Positions 844 to 23,838 of a DNA stretch of 32,000 bases are shown here, one piece after another. The DNA comes from Mycobacterium leprae TN (GTDB lineage: Bacteria; Actinomycetota; Actinomycetes; Mycobacteriales; Mycobacteriaceae): assembly GCF_000195855.1 (NCBI RefSeq), contig NC_002677.1, forward strand, positions 990,001 through 1,022,000, in the 5' to 3' direction. Numbering within the stretch: the stretch's first letter is position 1; each line of letters starts with the position of its first letter. A program made the position numbers and the translations under genes. The notes under the pieces were generated by a model, which saw only the letters and a list, made by a program, of their open reading frames with translations, ran no database searches and was not told where the DNA came from.

Positions 844-916
844 TCCCCTGTAGCTCAATTGGCAGAGCATTCGGCTGTTAACCGAACGGTTGGAGGTTCG
901 AGTCCTCCCGGGGGAG
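844..916 (+). tRNA. asnT: tRNA-Asn (anticodon GTT)
   Basis: I folded the cloverleaf by hand. The acceptor stem pairs tcccctg (844-850) with cggggga (909-915). The anticodon loop is ct-GTT-aa. The T arm is ggagg-ttcgagt-cctcc (892-908), and the discriminator is g916. No CCA is encoded. Confidence 0.95.
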
Positions 917-2789: not shown

Positions 2790-3815
2790 AGCGGTCCGAG
2801 CCCAATACTCGTAATTAGATTGTGTGGACCGATGGCGCGCTGGTTCTCGTCAATTAGCACGTGCTGCCTTACTAGCTGCAGCATTTGCGGATCGCAACGG
2901 TCGACGAGCTCATTGTGGCGATCAAAACCGGGTGGTTCGGGGAGGGGCACCAGCACTTGGGGTGGCTGGATCGTTTGAGGTGGTGTTGGCGGTTTTGGCA
3001 CACCCCGTCGATGATGAAAAGGTTGAGCTGAAGCTGGCGAGAAAGCATTTCGGCTCGGCTCGCCGCGGTGAATCTGGCGTGGGGCGTGCAACAGGCGCTG
3101 GCCAAGTTGCACGATGGGCAGCAGGCCGTGCTGCATGAGGTTCTGCGGATTTGAATGAAGATGACCAGGTCAGACCGGGCGACCGCGACTCATGCGGCGG
3201 ACTTTATCCAGCGGTTAAAGCCGGGTCCGCCAGTGCGCGTTCTGGCCCACTGCAATATTAGGTTATTGGCCACGACCGCGTTCGATAACGCACTATGGTG
3301 CGTTGCGGGTACTGTACGTGCCGGCAGATCGCGACTGTCTTGGTCGACGAGACCAGCCTGCTGCTGCAGGGGGCCTGGCTGGCCGCGTGGGAGCTGGCCG
3401 ATGCCGGCATCCCGCAACGGCTGACGATCGATTCGGCTGCGGTGTGTGCTATGGCCACCCGGGGAGGTGGACTGTGTGATCGTCGGTGCTGACTGCATCA
3501 CTGTTGACGGTTCGGTCGCCAACAAGATCGGCACCTATGGCATGGCACTCGTCGCTTATCGGCACGGCATTCCGTTCATCTTGGTCGCTCCTGAATCTAC
3601 GGGTGGTCCGGCTACCGCCACCGGGCGCGAGATCGCTGTGAAACAGCGGGCCGCAGATGAAATCACTCATTTGGGTGGGGTCGCGATCACCCCGGACGAC
3701 ACCGCTGTCGTCACCCTTGCCACTTCGATCTCGCCCCATCTGAATTGGTGACTGTGATCGTCACCGAGAATGATGTGGTGGATAACTACGCTGCAGATCG
3801 ACTTTCGGATGCGTC
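2790..3815 (+). pseudogene. mtnA: S-methyl-5-thioribose-1-phosphate isomerase pseudogene (eIF-2B alpha/beta/delta family)
   Basis: Fragments in three frames match MtnA: VWTDGALVLVN*HVLPY*..LRIATVDELIVAIKT, VRGGAPALGVAGSF, ATHAADFIQRL..VRVLAHCN..LATTAF, DETSLLLQGAWLAAWELADAGIP, VDCVIVGADCITVDGSVANKIGTYGMALVAYRHGIPFILVAPEST and VTVIVTENDVV. In-frame TAG stops are visible near 2850-2870. The ends are approximate. Confidence 0.7.
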
Positions 3816-4426
3816 GTCGCCCACCGATCTTGATCGGGCCACAGATCGCCAGCATCACCTCGGGTCTCTATGTGTGGTTAGATGCCAGACACGACCAGTA
3901 ACATTGCGGTTCGCAGCGGGCGGACCGTAGTAATCACCGGCAGTGGATTGGCCAAGGTTGAGCTTACCGCTGACGATATGGTAAAAGTGAATATTGCTGA
4001 TCCCCAAATTATTTCGGGAATACGATGCCTGTCGGCAGGGGCCATCATTCACACCGGTGTTTTCCGTGCTAGTTATACCGATGCCGTGGTGCACATCCAT
4101 CTGTCATATGTGATGGCACAGTCGCTTGACGTCCCAAGTGTGCTGCGGTTCAGTGGCTATGAGCTGATCAAACGGCTGGGGATCAGACGAACCATTGCCA
4201 TTCCGGTCTTTGGCGATCACGCCGATATTTCGCGCGTCGGCATCGATATTGAGCGTCATCTGTGAGCGGGAATCCGGATGCATCGCCGGTCTTGTTCGTA
4301 GCTGGCTACGACATCACCTCCTGGAATGCGTGCCTCGCGCAAGCTCGCGATCGCGCCAAGTGTTTGGAGGCGATGTTCGACCTGGCGACACTGATCGGAT
4401 GCCGCGAAACCGGAGCACAGGTGTGA
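3816..4426 (+). pseudogene. mtnB: methylthioribulose-1-phosphate dehydratase pseudogene (class II aldolase/adducin fold)
   Basis: ORF 3882..4265 (TSNIAVRSGRTVVITGSGLAKVELTADDMVKV...DAVVHIHLSYV...GYELIKRLG...IPVFGD) stops prematurely. The C-terminus continues in another frame (NPDASPVLFVAGYDITSWNACLAQARDRAKCLEAMFDL) to the TGA at 4424-4426. The 5' end is approximate. Confidence 0.65.
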
Positions 4427-4928
4427 TGACGTTGGTCCAGGTCATATCCGACAGTGACGTTGTCGACGTACGGTTGCGCACCGACGATGCGGAACTCATT
4501 AGCGTCGAACGAACCAAGCGTGGCGATTATTTTTGATCGCTGGCCCACGATGCCTGACCTCGATGCGGTCACCCCGATCACTGAAATCCGGGCGCACTAT
4601 CGCCACCACATTGCCGAACTGAATGCCGATAGCCGCTACCAGCACATCGACGTGGCGTGGCTGCAGCCCGTCTATAGTGAGACTTGCATTGGCTGGACAT
4701 GCCCAAGGTGGCCCGCTCGAAGTTTCTTGTCGAGCACCTGCACGCCGAGGACGAAGTGCGCTTCTTTGTCGCCGGCTGAGGCTGCTTCTATCCTGCATCT
4801 GGAACCTGAAATCGTGGCGGTAGTGTGCGACGGCGGTGACCTGTTGTTGTTGCCATCGTGTATCCGGCATTGGTGTGACATGGGCGTTCATCCCGATTTC
4901 GTGGCGATTCTGTTCTTAGAGGGAACCC
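4426..4928 (+). pseudogene. mtnD: acireductone dioxygenase (ARD) pseudogene
   Basis: The ATG at 4426 overlaps the mtnB stop by 1 nt. The frame MTLVQVISDSDVVDVRLRTDDAELISVERTKRGDYF hits a stop. Continuations in other frames are FDRWP...TEIRAHYRHHIAELNADSRYQHIDV, SKFLVEHLHAEDEVRFFVAG and HWCDMGVHPDFVAILF, the cupin C-terminal motif. The native 3' end is replaced by the left arm of the palindrome. Confidence 0.6.
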
Positions 4929-4988
4929 GGCGATTGCGGCGAGCACAGCGCGGATCAGCTGATCCGCGCTGTGCTCGCCGCAATCGCC
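4929..4988. repeat. perfect 60-bp palindrome (30 + 30 nt, no spacer)
   Basis: ggcgattgcggcgagcacagcgcggatcag (4929-4958) is the exact reverse complement of ctgatccgcgctgtgctcgccgcaatcgcc (4959-4988), checked base by base. It explains why ORFs on both strands contain the identical peptide RRAQRGSADPRCARRNR. Confidence 0.97.
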
Positions 4989-5640
4989 ATCGGGGAAACC
5001 ACCAGTCCGACCAGTTCGGTGCGCGAGTGTCTGCACGAGTGCAATTGCCCCATTTTGCGCAGTGGCTTGTCGATAACTGAAGCAGTCCTGTGGATTTGGT
5101 TATCATCGACAGTCGGCAATTGGTCGGACGACCCAGCGCTGATGCTGCGGAGGAAGTCGAATATCTCTTGCAGTCGGCTGGATTCCGATGTGAAGGACGA
5201 ACCGCTAAAGATAGCTCAAGGTCTGATCTGTGTAACTGGTTTCCGCAGTGGTGCCCTGCGCTGGGAATTCTTCTTCGACGTACCTCAGGCATTGACGATG
5301 TGGCACGACATGAGTATTGCTTTGCGCGTGTTTTCACTGGGTTCTGTTCGTAATCAACAGGCTTGGTCTGTCCACGCGCGGAGGTGAGCTGGTGTCGTTG
5401 ATCAGTGGCTGGTTCGATCTCACCAGCGCGGACGCTAAGCGCGAGGTGGCTTCCTACCACAAGATCTCCGATGCGATAGAAGTGCCAGACGCGAGAGGAT
5501 CCTCTTTCTGTTCGACTATCCCGACGAACTTGATGTGGCCGTCGCAGCGGGCTGGCTGGTGCTCGAGATGGCGTGCACAGGCCAGCCGAACTCCTCACGC
5601 CCCTATACTGTTGGCGTCATTCCTTTGCTGAAGTTGATTA
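4959..5640 (+). pseudogene. mtnC: enolase-phosphatase E1 (HAD family) pseudogene
   Basis: LIRAVLAAIAIGETTSPTSSV is a degenerate version of the HAD motif I region (xLLDIEGTTSPI). LKIAQGLICVTGFRSGALRWEFFFDVPQALTMWHDMSIALRVFSLGSVRNQQ follows. GELVSLISGWFDLTSADAKREVASYHKISDAIEV is in another frame. Frameshifts are present and the 3' end is approximate. Confidence 0.6.
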
Positions 5641-5669
5641 CCCACCTGTCGACCTGATGTCGAAAACAC

Positions 5670-6353
5670 TCAGATTGAGAAGTCCTCGCCGTGCCAAACC
5701 CCGGCTTCGGGTAGCCGGATGACGCGGTAGGTTTGCGAACCGCCGTCTTCGGCTTCCAGCTTGGCCACCCTGGTGAGCAGGGATTGCAGGCTGACGCCCA
5801 CGAAGTCGGGCAGCACAGAATCGTCCCCGTTGGCCGGGCTGTCGCTGCTGATGATTTGTCCGGGAACCCCGACGGCCACAGCGCTGGCTGGGACCTCCTT
5901 GACCACGACTGCGTTGGCGCCAATCCGGCTGTCCTCGCCGATCTTGATGGCACCGAGGACCTTGGCGCCGGCGCCGATGGTTACTCGATCCCCGATGGTT
6001 GGGTGACGTTTACCCGTTTCCCGGCCGGTGCCGCCGAGAGTGACTCCATGGAAGATGGTGACGTCATCGCCCACTTCCGCGGTTTCCCCGATCACCACGC
6101 CGGTCGCGTGATCGATGAACAGGCCGGCTCCGAGCACGGCACCGGGGTGGATGTCGACCCCAGTCAGGATGCGGGTGAGTTCGGCGAACGCCCGCGCGGC
6201 CAGTCTGGCGCGACGATTCCACAACCAGTGACTGATTCGATGACCCCAGACGGCGTGCACGCCTGGGTAGCAGCAGATGACCTCCAGCACCGTGGGCTGT
6301 GCCGGATCTCGCTGTCTTGCTGCCTGGATATCACGCCGGATTGCCGCAAACAT
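5670..6353 (-). CDS. cysE: serine O-acetyltransferase
   Basis: ORF 5670..6476 trimmed to the ATG at 6353 ([18 protein letters not shown]...), 2 nt after the cysK stop. The left-handed beta-helix hexapeptide region reads [44 protein letters not shown]. The C-terminus ends ...EDFSI, and as I recall a C-terminal Ile docks into the CysK active site in cysteine synthase complexes. Confidence 0.93.
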
Positions 6354-6355
6354 GG

Positions 6356-7288
6356 CTAGTTGGCTAAGTCCGCGAATAGCATCGTGCTTAAATATCGCTC
6401 GCCGAAATCGGGCAGCACGACGACGATCAGTTTTCCTGTATTCTCTGGCCGGCGGGCCACGTGCAGGGCGGCGCAAACGGCCGCCCCTGCGGAGATGCCG
6501 ACCAGCAGTCCCTCTTCCTTAGCCAGTCTGCGGGCTAGGTCGAGCGCTTCTTCGTTGCCGACGGTAACGATCTCGTCCACCAGGTCCAGGACCAGCACCG
6601 ACGGGACGAATCCAGCACCGATGCCCTGAATGGGGTGAGGACCCTTCTGGCCACCGGATAACACCGGCGACGCGGCGGGCTCTACGGCGACGAACTGCGT
6701 GGCGGGCCGGCGTTCTTTAATGATTCGGGCAACACCAGTGATAGTGCCTCCGGTCCCGATTCCAGAAACGAAGATGTCTACCTTGCCATCGGTGTCGCGC
6801 CACACTTCCTCGGCGGTTGTGGCGGCGTGGATGGCTGGGTTCGCTGGGTTCTCGAATTGCTGTGGTATAAAATACCTTTTATCGGACTTGGCTAATTCCT
6901 CAGCCTTGGCGATGGCTCCTGACATGCCATCGGCGCCCGGAGTCAAGATGAGTTCGGCGCCGTACGCTCGCAACAACATTCGTCGTTCGATGCTCATTGT
7001 CTCGGGCATGGTCAGCACGCAGTGGTAGCCACGTGCTGCGCATACCATAGCTAGTGCGATGCCGGTGTTCCCGCTCGTCGGCTCAAGGATGACGGTGTCC
7101 GGCTTGATCAAACCCGCTTCCTCGGCCGTGTCGATCATGGCCACGCCTATCCTGTCCTTCACGCTGTTGGCGGGATTGAAGGATTCCAGCTTGGCGACAA
7201 CGTCAGCCAGCGCACCTTCGGTAACTCGGCGTAGCCGGACCAGTGGCGTGTTACCAACTAGTTGTGTGACGTCTTCAGCAATGCTCAT
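6356..7288 (-). CDS. cysK: O-acetylserine sulfhydrylase (cysteine synthase A)
   Basis: Intact 310-aa ORF with the PLP-lysine motif NPANSVKDR, the substrate loop [10 protein letters not shown] and the glycine loop [10 protein letters not shown]. Its ATG (7288-7286) overlaps the upstream gene's TGA (7287-7285) in an ATGA arrangement. Confidence 0.96.
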
Positions 7289-8589
7289 CTATCTTCATCT
7301 CCAAGGGGCTCGGCTTCTTCAAACATCTCAGCCTCATTGGCCTCCCAGCTAATGTCGAACTCTATGGCCATTTCAGTGGGGATGGCTAGGGCAATGGGGG
7401 TTAGCCGCTGTGGTGTCCCCTCGATTGCCACTCCGGTTACTACTCGACCGGCGACGTTATGTGGCGTGGTTGCGGTCAGCGTTGTCGTCGACTTACCTGC
7501 AGTTTGGCGCAGGTAGAAGTCTGTTCCCGGTTGGATGATGTCGTCGATGACGTAGCCGTAGGAGTTGACGAGTGTGTGACCGTCGCTGGCATTGAACATC
7601 AGCGGTATTCGCACCTGGAACGGGCCCACGAGTTCGGGTTCTGCTATGGCGTTCGTGTCGACTAGATCCGGTTCGTCGGTTTGGTGCAGAACGTGGCTTG
7701 TCTCCGCAAGCAAGTAGTTGTAGAGGTATACAACTCGGTCGGCGTTGTGGTAATGGCGAGTGCCGGTTAACCAGAAGTCTACGTGATCGATTGTTGGGGA
7801 AGCGGCATCGGTGGTGGCGATCAATCGGTAGTAGCGGTAGCCGCGTCCACCTCGGCCGTGACTGCTGGCCAACAGTGTGCTACCGACGCCAAGTGTCTGT
7901 TGGTGACGGCCGATGCCGGCGGGTATAGTCCGTTGTGATCCGGAAACATCTTGCCAAACAACGCCATTGGATGATTTTTGCAGCTTCAGGTCGACCGGGG
8001 CTTCCGCGTCGACCCATGCTGAATAGCCGCCGAGCTGTGGTTCGCCGTCGAATTCGAACGTGATCACCGGTCCAGGGCAGCGATGTACCGCGACGGGTAC
8101 GTTTCGCGGTCGAGTATCAAGAGCCAAGCCGTTGGTCAGATACCAGATCGCGGCCTGGGTTGCTGCAATTGCTTCGTGTTCGCTGATATTGGCTGGCCCT
8201 AGTGGGTAGCCGGCTTCGCGTATCCGTTGGCTCAGGTCGGTGGTGGAGCGCATCGGGAAGGAGTGACGCAAAATCCAGTCCACCTCGGCTTCGCAGGAGT
8301 GCGCGCTCAGGTGCGGTAGTGCAGAGAACGTTCCCAGGCGATAACGCGACGGGTGTTGCGGTGCGATCCCGGTGAAATCGAGAGAGTAAGCGTGCAGGTT
8401 GGGGTTGAGCCTGATCAGATCGGTGCGTGCGCATGTGCCGTCGGCAAATATAATTGTGTCGACTGTGTGGGAGTAGGTACCGCTTCGGTAGCGAGTCATG
8501 TGAGTTAGTTCGGTGGTCGGTCTCACTGTGATGCGTCGGCAGGTCACCACCTGGGCTAGGGCGCGACTGGATATGGACAACACGGTCAT
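7285..8589 (-). CDS. TQXA (Cys-Gln thioester) domain-containing protein, no signal peptide or sorting motif
   Basis: Intact 434-aa ORF with GGAAG 11 nt upstream of the ATG at 8589. The block [11 protein letters not shown]...[20 protein letters not shown] (TQAAIW at 8143-8160) matches the TQXA motif region of thioester-domain adhesins. An upstream Cys sits in the expected context ([18 protein letters not shown], Cys codon 8431-8433). There is a central extra domain (..[11 protein letters not shown]..) and an acidic tail ([19 protein letters not shown]). The functional call rests on motifs only. Confidence 0.65.
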
Positions 8590-8737
8590 CGGTGGTTGAA
8601 CTTCCTAAAGGACGAGTTGGGTAGCGCGCGTCTCGATGCTGCCGGACGCGCAGGTATAGCGCTCGCGTAGGCGAGAACGTGAATGATTTGCTGAGAGCGT
8701 TAAAAGGTGTCAGGAATCAGCAACAGCGACAATAACA

Positions 8738-8829
8738 GTCCACGGTAAAGCGGCGCGTAAAGACAAAGCGTGGCTGTGTGGACTGATGCATAGGTCCACT
8801 ATAAGGTGTCGTGTGACTTTAAGCGCGCC
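8738..8829. promoter_or_regulatory. nested inverted and direct repeats in the divergent intergenic region (candidate operator)
   Basis: The inner inverted repeat is GTGGAC (8778-8783) and GTCCAC (8794-8799) with a 10-nt spacer. The outer imperfect inverted repeat is GGCGCGTAAAG (8751-8761) and CTTTAAGCGCGCC (8817-8829). The direct repeat is GTCCACGGTAAAG (8738-8750) and GTCCACTATAAGG (8794-8806). All sit in the 382-bp region between the divergent TQXA-cysK-cysE and encapsulin-desulfurase units. No regulator is assigned. Confidence 0.3.
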
Positions 8830-8971
8830 AGTTGGAGACCCCTGCAGTTTAAATCATTTTGCTCATACTTAGACTTACTTGCACTTCAGTGCGAGCCCGA
8901 TTTTTAGTGGGTGCTCACCGGGAGGGTGTTCAAAGCCAGCTGCTGTATTCGATCAACATGGAAGGACCAGG

Positions 8972-9895
8972 ATGACGTCGGCTCAGAATGAGTCTCAGGC
9001 ACTCGGCGATCTTGCTGCCGGGCAACTAGCCAACGCGACAAAAACTGTACCACAGCTCTCAACTATTACGCCGCGTTGGTTGCTGCATTTGCTCAACTGG
9101 GTTCCGGTGGAAGCGGGTGTCTATCGGGTGAACCGCGTGGTCAACCCCGAGCGGGTTGCAGTCAAAGCCGAGGCTGGCGCCGGCACCGAGGCACCGCTGC
9201 CGGAGACCTTCGTCGACTACGAGACCAGTCCGCGGGAATACACGCTGCGCACGATTTCGACGTTGCTAGATATTCACACACGGGTGTCGGATCTATACTC
9301 CAGCCCACATGACCAGATTACCCAACAACTGCGGCTGACCATCGAGACCATCAAGGAAAGGCAGGAGTGCGAGCTGGTCAACAGTCCCGAGTTCGGGTTG
9401 CTCGCGCAGGTGACTCCGGAGCAGACGATCCGGACTTTTGCCGGTGCTCCCACGCCCGACGACCTTGACGCACTGATTACCAAGGTCTGGAAGATGCCGA
9501 GCTTTTTCCTGACGCATCCGCAGGGCATCGCCGCGTTCGGCCGCGAGGCCACCTACCGTGGTGTGCCGCCCGTAGTCGTGAGCCTGTTCGGCGCACAGTT
9601 CATCACCTGGCGTGGCATTCCGCTGATCCCGTCGGACAAAGTCCCGGTGCAGGACGGTGAAACCAAGTTCATCTTGGTGCGCACTGGTGAGGAACGTCAG
9701 GGCGTGGTTGGGCTGTTCCAACCGGGCTTGGTCGGTGAGCAGGCGCCGGGACTGTCGGTGCGGTTCACTGGCATCAACCAGGCAGCGATCGCGACCTACT
9801 TGGTCACCCTCTACACGTCCTTGGCTGTCCTCACTGACGATGCGTTGGCTGTGCTTGACAACGTAGCTGTGGATCAGTTCCATGAGTACAAGTGA
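8972..9895 (+). CDS. mmpI: Family 2A encapsulin shell protein (M. leprae 35-kDa major membrane protein I)
   Basis: ORF 8879..9895 trimmed to the ATG at 8972, which follows the SD-like GGAAGGA (8960-8966), giving 307 aa. The strings QLANATKTVPQLSTITPRWLLHLLNWVPVEAGVYRVNRV, PETFVDYETSPREY, DLYSSPHDQITQQLRLTIE and LAVLTDDALAVLDNV are the hallmark blocks I recall from Family 2A encapsulins (Synechococcus SrpI type). A desulfurase gene overlaps its 3' end. Confidence 0.9.
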   Translation: MTSAQNESQALGDLAAGQLANATKTVPQLSTITPRWLLHLLNWVPVEAGVYRVNRVVNPERVAVKAEAGAGTEAPLPETFVDYETSPREYTLRTISTLLDIHTRVSDLYSSPHDQITQQLRLTIETIKERQECELVNSPEFGLLAQVTPEQTIRTFAGAPTPDDLDALITKVWKMPSFFLTHPQGIAAFGREATYRGVPPVVVSLFGAQFITWRGIPLIPSDKVPVQDGETKFILVRTGEERQGVVGLFQPGLVGEQAPGLSVRFTGINQAAIATYLVTLYTSLAVLTDDALAVLDNVAVDQFHEYK

Positions 9896-11786
9896 GTACC
9901 GGCCGGTAGACGCCGAAGACGAGTTGTTCGTCAGTGCTGCCCAACTTGCCGTGCGGGCCACGCAGCTGTATGCGGCCAGCTTTCGGCCCGGGTTTGACAG
10001 CCCGCCGCAGCTGGTGCCTGTTGCCCTGCGCGGCAGCGCGCCAGACACGACGACTGTGGCGTCGGCTGGCGAGTTAGCCGTGGGCACCACTGATCCGTGC
10101 CCGGCACCAGTTGCGCAGATCGGTGTCGCTGACGTCTATGTCCCAGCGCCGACGTCACCCGAGCCCGAAGGATTACCACAGGTGGCACCAGTCTTCTCAC
10201 GCGGCAATGTCCCCGACACCACGGCGGTGCCGGCGGCGGCCGGGACAACCGTGGGTGTGGCCGATCCCTATCTGCCGCCCGGGGTAGGTCACCTGAGTGG
10301 GTTCGCAGTGCCCAGCCACGGTATCGTGCCCACCGTTCCTGGCGTGTTGGCCGGCGGGCCGCCGACTGCTCCGGTGGCCCCGCGCAATTCGGCGCCTGTT
10401 TTGCGGCCCGAGTGGCCGTACCATGTGCCGTCGGTGAGTGATTTGGACTGGTTTGATGCGGTGCCAGCGGGTGTGCCTGGAGGCGACGAACACAATTACA
10501 ATTTTCTGATCGCAGCCCCCCAAGTGCCTCGGTTGGCCGATGAACACGAGATGGTCGACGTCTTCGATATTCAGGCCGTGCGGGCGGACTTTCCGATTCT
10601 GCAGGAGACCGTCAACGGCAAGCCGTTGATCTGGTTCGACAATGCCGCGACCACCCAGAAGCCGCAGGTAGTCATCGACCGACTGTCTTACTTCTATGCC
10701 CACGAAAACTCCAACATTCACCGCGCGGCGCATGAACTGGCGGCTCGGGCCACCGATGCTTACGAGGAAGCCCGGGAAACAGCACGGCGTTTTATCGGTG
10801 CAGCCAAGGCCCAAGAGATCATCTTCGTGCGCGGTACTACTGAAGCGATTAACCTGGTTGCCTATGCGTGGGGGGGTAAGCATTTGCAACCTGGTGACGA
10901 GGTAGTCATCACTCATCTCGAACATCACGCTAATATCGTTCCTTGGCAATTGCTTTCGTCACAAACTGGGGCAATCCTGAAAGTCGCACCGGTTGACGAT
11001 GCGGGCAACTTGTTAATGTCGGAATTCGAGGATCTGCTGGGTCCCAGAACGAAGTTGGTGGCTGCGACTCAGGTGTCGAACGCATTAGGCACGGTTACAC
11101 AAGGTGAGAAGATCGTTGAGTTGGGTCATCGCTACGGTGCTCGGGTGCTGATCGACGGCGCACAGTCGATTCCGCATCTGCCGATCAATGTCTCCGAGCT
11201 CGGCGCCGATTTCTTCGTGTTTTCCGGACATAAGATTTACGGCCCCACCGGGATCGGTGTGCTTTACGGGTGCGAGGATGTGCTGACGGAGATGCCACCG
11301 TGGCAGGGCGGTGGCAACATGATCGTCGATGTGACGCTGGAACGGTCGCTATATCAGGGGCCGCCCAACAAGTTTGAGGCCGGCACCGGGAATATCGCTG
11401 ACGCCGTCGGACTGGGGGAGGCGCTGCGTTACGTCGAGCGGGTGGGCGTCCAGCGTATTGCGTCCCATGAGCAAGCACTGCTCGACTATGCGACACCTCG
11501 GCTGGCCGACATACCCGGTGTTCGCCTGGTGGGCACCGCAACGGAGAAAGCCAGCGTGCTGTCGTTCGTGCTGGCTGGACACGAGCCGCTAGAGGTGGGC
11601 AAGGCACTCAATGCCGAAGGGATTGCGGTGCGTGCTGGTCATCATTGCGCACAGCCAGTTCTGCGGCGCCTTGGGTTGGAGGCCACGGTTCGCCCATCGT
11701 TCGCCTTTTACAACACATACGAAGAGATCGACGTCTTCATCAATGTGGTGCGTCGGATCGCAGAGGGCGGTACCAATATCGGCTGA
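9882..11786 (+). CDS. SufS/CsdA-type cysteine desulfurase with ~225-aa disordered N-terminal cargo-loading extension
   Basis: Intact 634-aa ORF whose ATG at 9882 overlaps the encapsulin stop by 14 nt. Residues ~226-634 read VRADFPIL..WFDNAATTQKP..THLEHHANIVPW..FSGHKIYGPTGIGVLYG (PLP Lys451)..RAGHHCAQP (catalytic Cys589). Residues 1-225 are Pro/Ala/Val/Gly/Thr-rich with no enzyme-like sequence. Confidence 0.92.
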   Translation: MSTSEYRPVDAEDELFVSAAQLAVRATQLYAASFRPGFDSPPQLVPVALRGSAPDTTTVASAGELAVGTTDPCPAPVAQIGVADVYVPAPTSPEPEGLPQVAPVFSRGNVPDTTAVPAAAGTTVGVADPYLPPGVGHLSGFAVPSHGIVPTVPGVLAGGPPTAPVAPRNSAPVLRPEWPYHVPSVSDLDWFDAVPAGVPGGDEHNYNFLIAAPQVPRLADEHEMVDVFDIQAVRADFPILQETVNGKPLIWFDNAATTQKPQVVIDRLSYFYAHENSNIHRAAHELAARATDAYEEARETARRFIGAAKAQEIIFVRGTTEAINLVAYAWGGKHLQPGDEVVITHLEHHANIVPWQLLSSQTGAILKVAPVDDAGNLLMSEFEDLLGPRTKLVAATQVSNALGTVTQGEKIVELGHRYGARVLIDGAQSIPHLPINVSELGADFFVFSGHKIYGPTGIGVLYGCEDVLTEMPPWQGGGNMIVDVTLERSLYQGPPNKFEAGTGNIADAVGLGEALRYVERVGVQRIASHEQALLDYATPRLADIPGVRLVGTATEKASVLSFVLAGHEPLEVGKALNAEGIAVRAGHHCAQPVLRRLGLEATVRPSFAFYNTYEEIDVFINVVRRIAEGGTNIG

Positions 11787-23530: not shown

Positions 23531-23838
23531 GGATCGGTTCCTATTTATGTAGCGTTAGTGACCCGTGTAGAGTGAGGTAGTTCTGGGCCGGTTCGGTCCA
23601 AGCAAGTGGTGTGGTTCTCGCAAATCCGCGTGTTCCGCTCCAGTGTGTCACTGTGTAAGTCCGAGGGCGCTGCTCTGTCTGTATCGGGCGGTCTTCGGTA
23701 GTGGCTGTCGGGCTCTCCGGATCTGGAGCAGGTCGGCCGCTTCGATCGATGGCCGTAGTCGTATTCAGACTGTGCTCTCCGGGATTGCGTGCGTGGCGCC
23801 GAAACAGATTAATAACGAGAGAGGCTGTGCGGACGGTT

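Follow-up and report, generated by a model that had tools for sequence, protein, structure and literature searches.

ML0840 of Mycobacterium leprae: A Thioester-Domain Fold without Its Thioester Cysteine and a Probable Accessory of the Desulfurase Encapsulin

Introduction

What may a thioester-domain protein do in a cell from which it has no visible means of being secreted? This question is raised by a gene of Mycobacterium leprae TN, located in a stretch of 32,000 nucleotides (NCBI RefSeq assembly GCF_000195855.1, contig NC_002677.1, positions 990,001 to 1,022,000 of the forward strand). This whole stretch is referred to here as the window, and positions are counted from its first letter. The gene fits ML0840, which has been described as a hypothetical protein of 434 aa (PMC3040138). 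We report that its product matches the thioester domain (TED) profiles and is predicted to adopt the TED fold, that the cysteine needed for the thioester has been replaced by a serine, and that the most constant neighbour of the gene is a family 2A encapsulin with a cysteine desulfurase cargo. Taken together, we consider it probable, although well short of certain, that ML0840 is a thioester-less, TED-fold accessory of the desulfurase encapsulin under cysteine control. Any specific biochemical role is proposed with far less confidence.

Structurally, the thioester cysteine of a TED sits in an N-terminal [YFL]C-Phi-zeta motif, and the bond-forming Gln is found in a C-terminal strand, in the motif Phi-Q-zeta-Phi-Phi, although a recognisable C-terminal Gln motif is often missing in class II TEDs. 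A third motif, TQxx-Phi-W, lies on the central helix, where its Gln and Trp merely hydrogen-bond the backbone of the Cys and are dispensable for the bond. In TEDs as defined by Walden 2015 and Miller 2018, a secretion signal and LPXTG anchoring are nearly always present (PMC4450167, PMC6194298). An earlier note on this DNA, made from the letters alone, had read the gene as a signal-less TQXA/thioester-domain protein coupled to cysK, bearing a Cys53-Gln145 thioester. It had offered two options: a non-classically exported factor that captures the host covalently, or a cytoplasmic thioester protein tied to cysteine and sulfur chemistry.

The Gene and Its Product

7285 to 8589, minus strand: TED-like open reading frame (ORF) of 434 aa, with Pfam TED and TIGR03934 matches and the length of ML0840
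7288 to 7344, minus strand: acidic tail, aa 416-434, with a net charge of -8 over the last 19 residues, not conserved

The ORF is intact, and both its length and its relatives fit ML0840 of M. leprae; the closest relatives are found in M. lepromatosis (88-89% identity) and M. haemophilum (86%). The earlier note had expected matches to Pfam TED and to the TIGRFAM TQXA domain, and both curated cut-offs were passed. Pfam TED (PF08341) scored 32.1 bits against a cut-off of 22, and TIGR03934 (TQXA_dom) scored 54.6 bits against 30.4, over aa 103-155. Pfam TED was also matched by 30 of 30 diverse family members. As had been noticed before, the protein is without a signal peptide, lipobox, LPXTG motif or transmembrane helix; its highest Kyte-Doolittle mean over 19 residues is 1.04, and a signal peptide was found in none of the family members of about 400-520 aa. 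The intact frame of 434 aa, TQAAIW at 8160 to 8143 and Cys53 at 8433 to 8431 can all be read in the sequence. Because the ORF, the motif, Cys53, the ATGA overlap with cysK described below, the profile scores and the missing export signals all hold, the observation at the level of the letters is confirmed. The acidic C-terminal tail does carry its net charge of -8, but it is not a conserved feature, being absent or different in orthologues; the M. lepromatosis protein (420 aa) stops 14 residues sooner.

Retention of the gene had been taken earlier as a sign of function, and this is supported as probable, with the frame intact in M. leprae and M. lepromatosis. The orthologue of the latter was checked as a possible pseudogene and is intact, with 420 aa and 88% identity. 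The ML0840 transcript has been measured in literature data, and the protein is a published T-cell antigen, to which patients show T-cell responses but no serum immunoglobulin G (IgG) (PMC3040138).

The Thioester Site

8377 to 8388, minus strand: Y68-S69-L70-D71, the motif [YFL]C-Phi-zeta carrying Ser where Cys would stand, located by the Pfam TED alignment and by in silico mutation
8143 to 8160, minus strand: T144-Q145-A-A-I-W149, the TQxx-Phi-W helix motif with its non-bonding Gln, within the TIGR03934 match; all 150 sequences keep both Q145 and W149
8431 to 8433, minus strand: Cys53, the thioester candidate of the earlier note, in a variable column

Residue conservation was counted in an alignment of 150 family sequences, with ML0840 as the reference. 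The canonical cysteine position was located through the Pfam TED profile, positions 3-4 of which fall on Tyr-Ser within AYSLD in P0133, P0164, P0177 and P0205, relatives whose Pfam alignments extend to the beginning of the profile. The corresponding residues of ML0840, Y68-S69-L70-D71, are an exact [YFL]-x-Phi-zeta. The profile was then used as a probe, with Ser-to-Cys and Ser-to-Ala changes made in silico in ML0840, two relatives and one secreted paralogue. Changing Ser69 to Cys raised the Pfam TED score of ML0840 by 5.2 bits and extended its alignment from aa 98-156 to aa 67-156. The corresponding change in the other three sequences added 6.9, 7.2 and 7.0 bits, whereas Ser to Ala shifted the score of the same four sequences by just 0.1-0.4 bits. 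As cysteine adds 5.2-7.2 bits and alanine 0.1-0.4, Ser69 occupies the conserved Cys column of the TED profile.

Within the 150 relatives, this column holds Ser in 149, Thr in 1 and Cys in 0; Ala is found at the equivalent position of the family member P0189 and of both modules of the secreted protein P0231. The column of Cys53 is of a different kind, its six commonest residues being S (53), T (43), C (19), W (16), R (7) and V (4). Close homologues carry S (37), C (30), W (26) or R (19) at this position, and distant homologues carry C in 2 of 70; Cys53 is kept in M. leprae, M. lepromatosis and M. haemophilum. No invariant Cys exists in the alignment of 150 sequences, where Cys17, Cys99 and Cys171 of ML0840 are also variable. 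On the glutamine side, Q145 is Gln in 150/150 and is the sole invariant Gln of the family. Q325 and Q394 are Gln in 47% and 31% of the relatives, and the positions of Q185 and Q204 hold Glu in about 21% (32/150). Y68, S69, L70, D71, T144, Q145 and W149 are all nearly invariant, and the family alignment showed neither an invariant His nor another catalytic partner.

The thioester cysteine is demonstrably missing from ML0840 itself, and by the alignment both residues that define a functional TED appear to be missing from the family. Because the bond-forming Cys is replaced by a near-invariant Ser, and no bond-forming Gln is conserved, the thioester chemistry has most likely been lost. With the Gln motif of class II TEDs being so often unrecognisable, ML0840 itself may still have a Gln placed suitably by its structure, but such a Gln would be without a Cys partner. 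The Cys53-Gln145 thioester proposed earlier does not survive this comparison, with Q145 being the non-bonding Gln of the TQ motif, Ser69 the canonical Cys site, and Cys53 present in 19/150 relatives. Of the earlier options, the thioester protein falls, but a signal-less protein with a TED/TQXA profile, tied to cysteine and sulfur metabolism, stands.

Fold and Domain Architecture

7765 to 8097, minus strand: CBM32 / F5-8 type C (discoidin-like) beta-sandwich, aa ~165-275, an insert that follows the TQ helix and precedes the next one
7345 to 7677, minus strand: C-terminal beta-sandwich, aa ~305-415, from the predicted secondary structure, placed as the extra sandwich of class II TEDs and without a conserved Gln

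A first AlphaFold run, on a shallow alignment of 30 sequences, gave a mean predicted local distance difference test (pLDDT) of 55.7, with the N-terminal 97 residues below 50, and was replaced. The AlphaFold2 model built from 150 diverse sequences reached a pLDDT of 88.2 and a predicted template modelling score (pTM) of 0.83. Its top Foldseek match in the PDB is 6fwy, the class II TED of Enterococcus faecium TIE86 (E 1.4e-7, probability 1.00). Sequence searches of the PDB with two family profiles and a 99-aa fragment returned nothing significant, the best match being Cpa (2xi9, E 0.24), through the TQ motif only.

The central extra domain that had been noticed from the letters is confirmed, and at aa ~165-275 it takes the CBM32 / F5-8 type C fold. 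Foldseek matches this insert to 4a42, 4a44, 2kd7, 2j7m and 2j1e (probability 1.00, over ~105-122 columns), and weak profile matches were obtained to the CBM32 entries 4a42 and 4lks. ML0840 falls short of the Pfam profile F5_F8_type_C, the cut-off of which is passed by the homologous insert in P0231 (32.4 vs 28.2 bits). In the model, ML0840 runs from N-terminal strands and a helical TED head through the discoidin-like insert and one helix to the C-terminal sandwich and the acidic tail.

Compared with the class II TEDs (E. faecium TIE86-TED 6FWY, BaTIE and SaTIE), ML0840 has in common the TQxx-Phi-W motif, the Pfam TED match and the extra sandwich after the helical bundle. It differs in having a Ser for the thioester Cys and no conserved bonding Gln, and in the additional CBM32-like domain inserted after the TQ helix. 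Unlike these proteins, it is without a signal peptide, a sortase motif or an isopeptide/ester stalk, is predicted to be cytoplasmic, and is encoded beside an encapsulin.

A group of secreted, sortase-type actinobacterial proteins (P0203, P0205, P0214, P0228, P0231, P0239 and P0260) contains two TED-like modules each. These are homologous to ML0840 throughout, including the N-terminal strands, the TQ motif, the F5/8 type C insert, which is carried by their second module, and the C-terminal sandwich. What sets them apart from it are signal peptides, the tandem arrangement of the modules, further domains and C-terminal anchors of a membrane or sortase-like kind, and no link of theirs to an encapsulin is known. 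These secreted proteins are also without the thioester Cys, reading YS[VLA]D or YA[LA][ND] at the site, and for this reason the whole clade of "thioester domains" may be thioester-less.

The Encapsulin Neighbourhood

8879 to 9895, plus strand: family 2A encapsulin shell of the MMP-I type (NF041162, 495.1 bits vs 380; Pfam SrpI-like, 325 bits)
9882 to 11786, plus strand: encapsulin cargo cysteine desulfurase with an N-terminal loading domain of ~220 aa (NF041166, 824.2 bits vs 800)
6356 to 7288, minus strand: cysK, O-acetylserine sulfhydrylase (TIGR01139, 465.7 bits)
5670 to 6476, minus strand: cysE, serine O-acetyltransferase (TIGR01172, 246.8 bits, aa 46-207 of a 268-aa ORF)

The TED gene lies between two sets of genes connected with sulfur. 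On one side, directly upstream, the encapsulin shell gene is divergent from it, with a likely start at Met32 (8972). On the other side, the TED stop TGA (7287 to 7285) overlaps the cysK ATG (7288 to 7286), giving ATGA, and cysE follows, with its likely true start being an ATG near 6350. The earlier note was right on this overlap and on the TED-cysK-cysE order, but had missed the divergent family 2A encapsulin/desulfurase pair and the polycysteine leader ORF discussed below.

A relative was found in 394 species genomes, and the best 80 of the 394 loci were inspected. The order desulfurase, shell, divergent TED, cysK and cysE is found in 78 of these 80, the other two being without the upstream flank. 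The ATGA overlap itself is limited to a few species, with most Mycobacterium loci having a gap of ~10-60 nt between TED and cysK. Among the non-mycobacterial contigs (Propionicimonas and metagenome-assembled genomes, MAGs), TED, shell and desulfurase genes follow one another in this order, co-directionally, in all five with usable flanks. Scans of two of the five loci, L083 and L087, confirmed the shell (NF041162, 485-494 bits) and the desulfurase cargo, and in L087 the TED stop overlaps the GTG start of the encapsulin (GTGA, 7413 to 7416 of that locus). None of the five has an adjacent cysK/cysE pair, and two carry a CysM-like/rhodanese fusion after the desulfurase.

The earlier note had asked whether orthologues always precede cysK, and the answer is that they do not in Mycolicibacterium mageritense or in Propionicimonas-type loci. 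In M. mageritense there is no cysK: the TED gene, divergent from the encapsulin, has an unrelated convergent gene after it. M. lepromatosis has intact genes for the TED protein (420 aa), the shell and the cargo, and its cysK and cysE (9302 to 10918 of locus L001, strain FJ924) are split over three frames with internal stops; from these frameshifts and stops, both are apparently pseudogenes. By gene order, the constant partner of the TED gene is the encapsulin and not cysK, as the encapsulin is kept in loci where cysK/cysE are absent or broken. The candidacy of cysK as the defining partner was rejected on its absence from M. mageritense and Propionicimonas-type loci and its decay in M. lepromatosis. 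An orthologue of ML0840 is reported as absent from M. tuberculosis, BCG, M. marinum and M. ulcerans (PMC3040138).

Desulfurase encapsulins serve as stores of elemental sulfur, with a response to sulfur starvation (PMC10836720). The accessories of family 2A encapsulin-cysteine desulfurase (Enc-CD) operons, a rhodanese and a serine O-acetyltransferase (Benisch et al. 2024, PMC10836720), resemble the TED gene in being neither shell nor cargo and in being linked to sulfur starvation, and the M. leprae locus shares cysE with them. The four published Enc-CD operon types list the rhodanese, acetyltransferase, encapsulin and desulfurase (R, AT, Enc, CD) only, with no TED-like gene (PMC10836720). In contrast to the rhodanese, the TED protein has no conserved Cys to carry a persulfide.

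Some further observations were made at these loci. The CysM-like enzyme of the pyridoxal phosphate (PLP) type that is fused to a rhodanese domain lies 3' of the desulfurase, at 10097 to 11431 of L087 and on the contig of P0283, and these non-mycobacterial loci have a methionine-type ATP-binding cassette (ABC) importer (Lipoprotein_9 / BPD_transp_1 / ABC_tran) divergently upstream. In L028 (MAG MFD04540.bin.2.52, 4793 to 10919), the TED, cysK, cysE, encapsulin and desulfurase matches are all frame-split, which could reflect a decaying locus in a reduced genome or long-read indel errors.

The Polycysteine Leader

8717 to 8791, minus strand: polycysteine short ORF, MHQSTQPRFVFTRRFTVDCYCRCC, ending in DCYCRCC before its stop, 127 nt upstream of the TED start
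8798 to 8803, minus strand: TATAGT, a -10-like hexamer, 6 nt before the ATG of the short ORF

The TED gene is the first gene behind a short ORF rich in cysteine codons. The sequence TATAGTGG is conserved in an alignment of 14 loci, and a Cys-run ORF, typically ending in CCCCCC, is found upstream of the TED gene in 83 of 85 loci. It is also present before the TED gene of M. mageritense, which has no cysK, and in Propionicimonas it heads a TED-shell-desulfurase unit. As the TATAGT, which is conserved, lies 6 nt before the ATG, the short ORF is leaderless in prediction.

Cysteine leader peptides were predicted at this place by Seliverstov et al. 2005, who noted ML0840 and MAP2122 as additional members of the cys operon (PMC1262725). 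In experiments on M. smegmatis, Canestrari et al. then showed cysteine-responsive attenuation by short ORFs of the polycysteine leaderless type; in that species, Ms4536A lies upstream of a gene named Ms4536/TQXA, and in M. tuberculosis, Rv2334A lies directly before cysK1-cysE and is homologous to Ms4536A despite the non-homologous contexts (bioRxiv 10.1101/834739). The short ORF at 8717 to 8791 is likely to be orthologous to the leaderless attenuators Rv2334A and Ms4536A, and is by analogy a probable cysteine-responsive attenuator. The layout of Ms4536/TQXA, a polycysteine leaderless short ORF followed by a TQXA gene, is the same as here, and M. mageritense has the same single-gene layout, beside an encapsulin; in M. 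leprae and most slow growers, unlike Ms4536, cysK and cysE continue the same unit. Read across genomes, the order short ORF-TED-cysK-cysE connects the Ms4536A and Rv2334A contexts. Canestrari et al. left the function and the regulon membership of Ms4536/TQXA open and did not mention the encapsulin (bioRxiv 10.1101/834739).

In the spacer between the leader ORF and the TED gene no conserved RNA structure was found (RNAalifold -7.5 kcal/mol, one compensatory pair), and the leader ORF-TED region returned neither an Rfam family nor a sigma-70 consensus promoter. A terminator-like hairpin (7 pairs, then CCCGATTTTT) is located at 8878 to 8895 on the plus strand, in the divergent promoter region; it falls within the part by which the encapsulin ORF, as listed from 8879, is extended at its 5' end, upstream of the probable start at 8972.

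Proposed Role and Alternative Explanations

TED and CBM32 folds are binding modules. Given these folds and the missing conserved Cys, a non-covalent docking or ligand-binding accessory is suggested, rather than a persulfide carrier or an enzyme. We propose that ML0840 would be a cytoplasmic protein with a TED fold whose thioester chemistry is lost, a CBM32/discoidin-like insert and a class II-type C-terminal sandwich, encoded by a third gene that is conserved in the family 2A encapsulin / cysteine-desulfurase loci of actinobacteria. Since the gene stands first behind a polycysteine leaderless short ORF, the protein would be expected when cysteine, as charged tRNA-Cys, is scarce, and in slow-growing mycobacteria it would be made together with CysK and CysE. 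It may then act as a non-covalent binding or adaptor partner of the sulfur-storing encapsulin during cysteine limitation, and docking on the shell, or the binding of a ligand, could couple the stored sulfur to cysteine resynthesis. The cysteine response of the TED gene is inferred by analogy, having been shown just for other polycysteine short ORFs of M. smegmatis; a link to the encapsulin, be it physical or functional, and a role in binding are likewise proposed from gene context and fold.

A more specific version of this role can be formulated, which we regard as doubtful. The ML0840/Ms4536 family might be the missing deployment factor of actinobacterial desulfurase encapsulins, a degenerate module of the adhesin type docking on the Mmp1 shell under cysteine starvation. 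As the family has no Cys of its own, its CBM32-like pocket might present a low-molecular-weight thiol, such as mycothiol, to extract stored sulfur for CysK-dependent cysteine resynthesis, as rhodanese does in proteobacterial operons. Mycothiol is an actinobacteria-specific glycoside.

Several points weigh against an encapsulin accessory. Constraint on the TED gene is relaxed between the two leprosy bacilli, as judged from its ratio of non-synonymous to synonymous substitutions (dN/dS) of 0.455, the shell having 0.11 and the cargo 0.19. Some chemistry may be retained at the site, as the near-invariance of Ser69 hints, and the proposal leaves this unaccounted for. A classical persulfide carrier, like the proteobacterial rhodanese, is ruled out, because no Cys is conserved. 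Synteny and co-regulation, from which an interaction of the TED protein with shell or cargo is proposed, could reflect a parallel role in sulfur starvation only. All 80 inspected loci belong to Mycobacterium, and the distant contig P0162 is too short to include the upstream neighbour. Ms4536 went undetected in M. smegmatis proteomics (bioRxiv 10.1101/834739). Additionally, a profile of the TED N-terminus gave negative scores only against 76 desulfurase N-terminal domains; with this lack of likeness to the desulfurase loading domain, a role as encapsulin cargo is unsupported.

Two alternatives keep covalent chemistry at the centre. The "chemical harpoon" of the earlier note, with an internal Cys53-Gln thioester in a protein that is either cytoplasmic or exported non-classically to bind the host, can draw on the TED and TQXA profile matches, on the presence of Cys53 in M. 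leprae, M. lepromatosis and M. haemophilum, and on a report that the neighbouring encapsulin shell promotes host-cell invasion by M. avium (PMC13577054). It is nevertheless highly improbable, given that Gln145 belongs to the non-bonding TQ motif, that the canonical Cys position is Ser69, that Cys53 is replaced in 131/150 relatives with no C-terminal Gln conserved, and that the protein has no export or anchoring signals and elicits T-cell responses in patients but no serum IgG. Thr-Gln esters occur in adhesin stalk domains, and Ser69 could in principle form an oxo-ester with a Gln/Glu or serve as the nucleophile of some enzyme activity. The near-invariance of Y68, S69, L70, D71, T144, Q145 and W149 speaks for such chemistry, since it points to selection on the surroundings of the former thioester site. 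We still find it very unlikely: no partner Gln is conserved (Q185/Q204 are Glu in ~21% and Q325/Q394 Gln in <50%), the residue is Ala in P0189 and both P0231 modules, and an invariant His or catalytic partner was not seen in the family alignment.

The other two alternatives concern what the gene works with, and whether it works at all. An accessory or regulator of the CysK-CysE pair, translationally coupled to cysK and functionally unrelated to the encapsulin, would account for the ATGA overlap in the window, the TED-cysK-cysE order in nearly all 80 Mycobacterium loci and the shared polycysteine leader. It becomes unlikely in view of the M. mageritense and Propionicimonas-type loci, which have no cysK/cysE downstream, of M. 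lepromatosis, where these are pseudogenes beside an intact TED gene, and of M. tuberculosis, where the short ORF, cysK1 and cysE occur without a TED gene; no neighbour but the encapsulin is constant. The M. leprae gene may also be a drifting remnant with little or no function, intact by chance, as its dN/dS of 0.455 exceeds that of its neighbours, the C-terminal tail differs between the leprosy bacilli, and the downstream genes have decayed in M. lepromatosis. This is about as improbable as the CysK-CysE accessory, because the frame is intact in both reduced genomes at 88% amino-acid identity, dN/dS is well <1, and ML0840 keeps all family-invariant residues and is transcribed and immunogenic. 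An encapsulin accessory under cysteine control therefore remains the reading we prefer.

Other Features of the Window

Downstream of cysE, the only ORFs of the interval 3136 to 5670, of 208, 236 and 138 aa, overlap one another on the two strands and have no match in Pfam; the interval is probably pseudogene debris. Two RNA elements were found elsewhere:

844 to 916, plus strand: tRNA gene (69.4 bits)
23687 to 23757, plus strand: Actino-pnp cis-regulatory RNA (51.3 vs 47.7 bits), before the polynucleotide phosphorylase gene

Implications

The earlier note had considered its options undescribed, which is partly true. The orthologue has been named Ms4536/TQXA (bioRxiv 10.1101/834739), ML0840 is a published T-cell antigen, and the gene is already annotated as "TQXA/thioester domain-containing protein" in public data. 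No paper linking encapsulins to TQXA/thioester domains was found in the literature searched. Within that literature, three things appear new: a family without the thioester Cys, the conservation of this family across actinobacteria as part of the family 2A desulfurase-encapsulin loci, and an M. leprae-type operon that bridges both attenuator contexts.

For the family, a TQXA/TED annotation does not imply a thioester, as a whole actinobacterial family is named "thioester domain-containing" although it is without the Cys. The order short ORF-TED-cysK-cysE explains the homology of Ms4536A and Rv2334A despite their differing published contexts, and it places an encapsulin partner in a predicted cysteine-starvation regulon. 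The identity of ML0840 is also of practical value, as the protein has been used as a leprosy T-cell diagnostic antigen. For the organism and its relatives, the TED gene adds a third, conserved member to the actinobacterial locus of the family 2A desulfurase encapsulin, which includes the MMP-I antigen system of M. leprae and M. avium. It may thus offer a concrete candidate for how sulfur enters or leaves the compartment and for who receives it, with a tractable orthologue in M. smegmatis MSMEG_4536.

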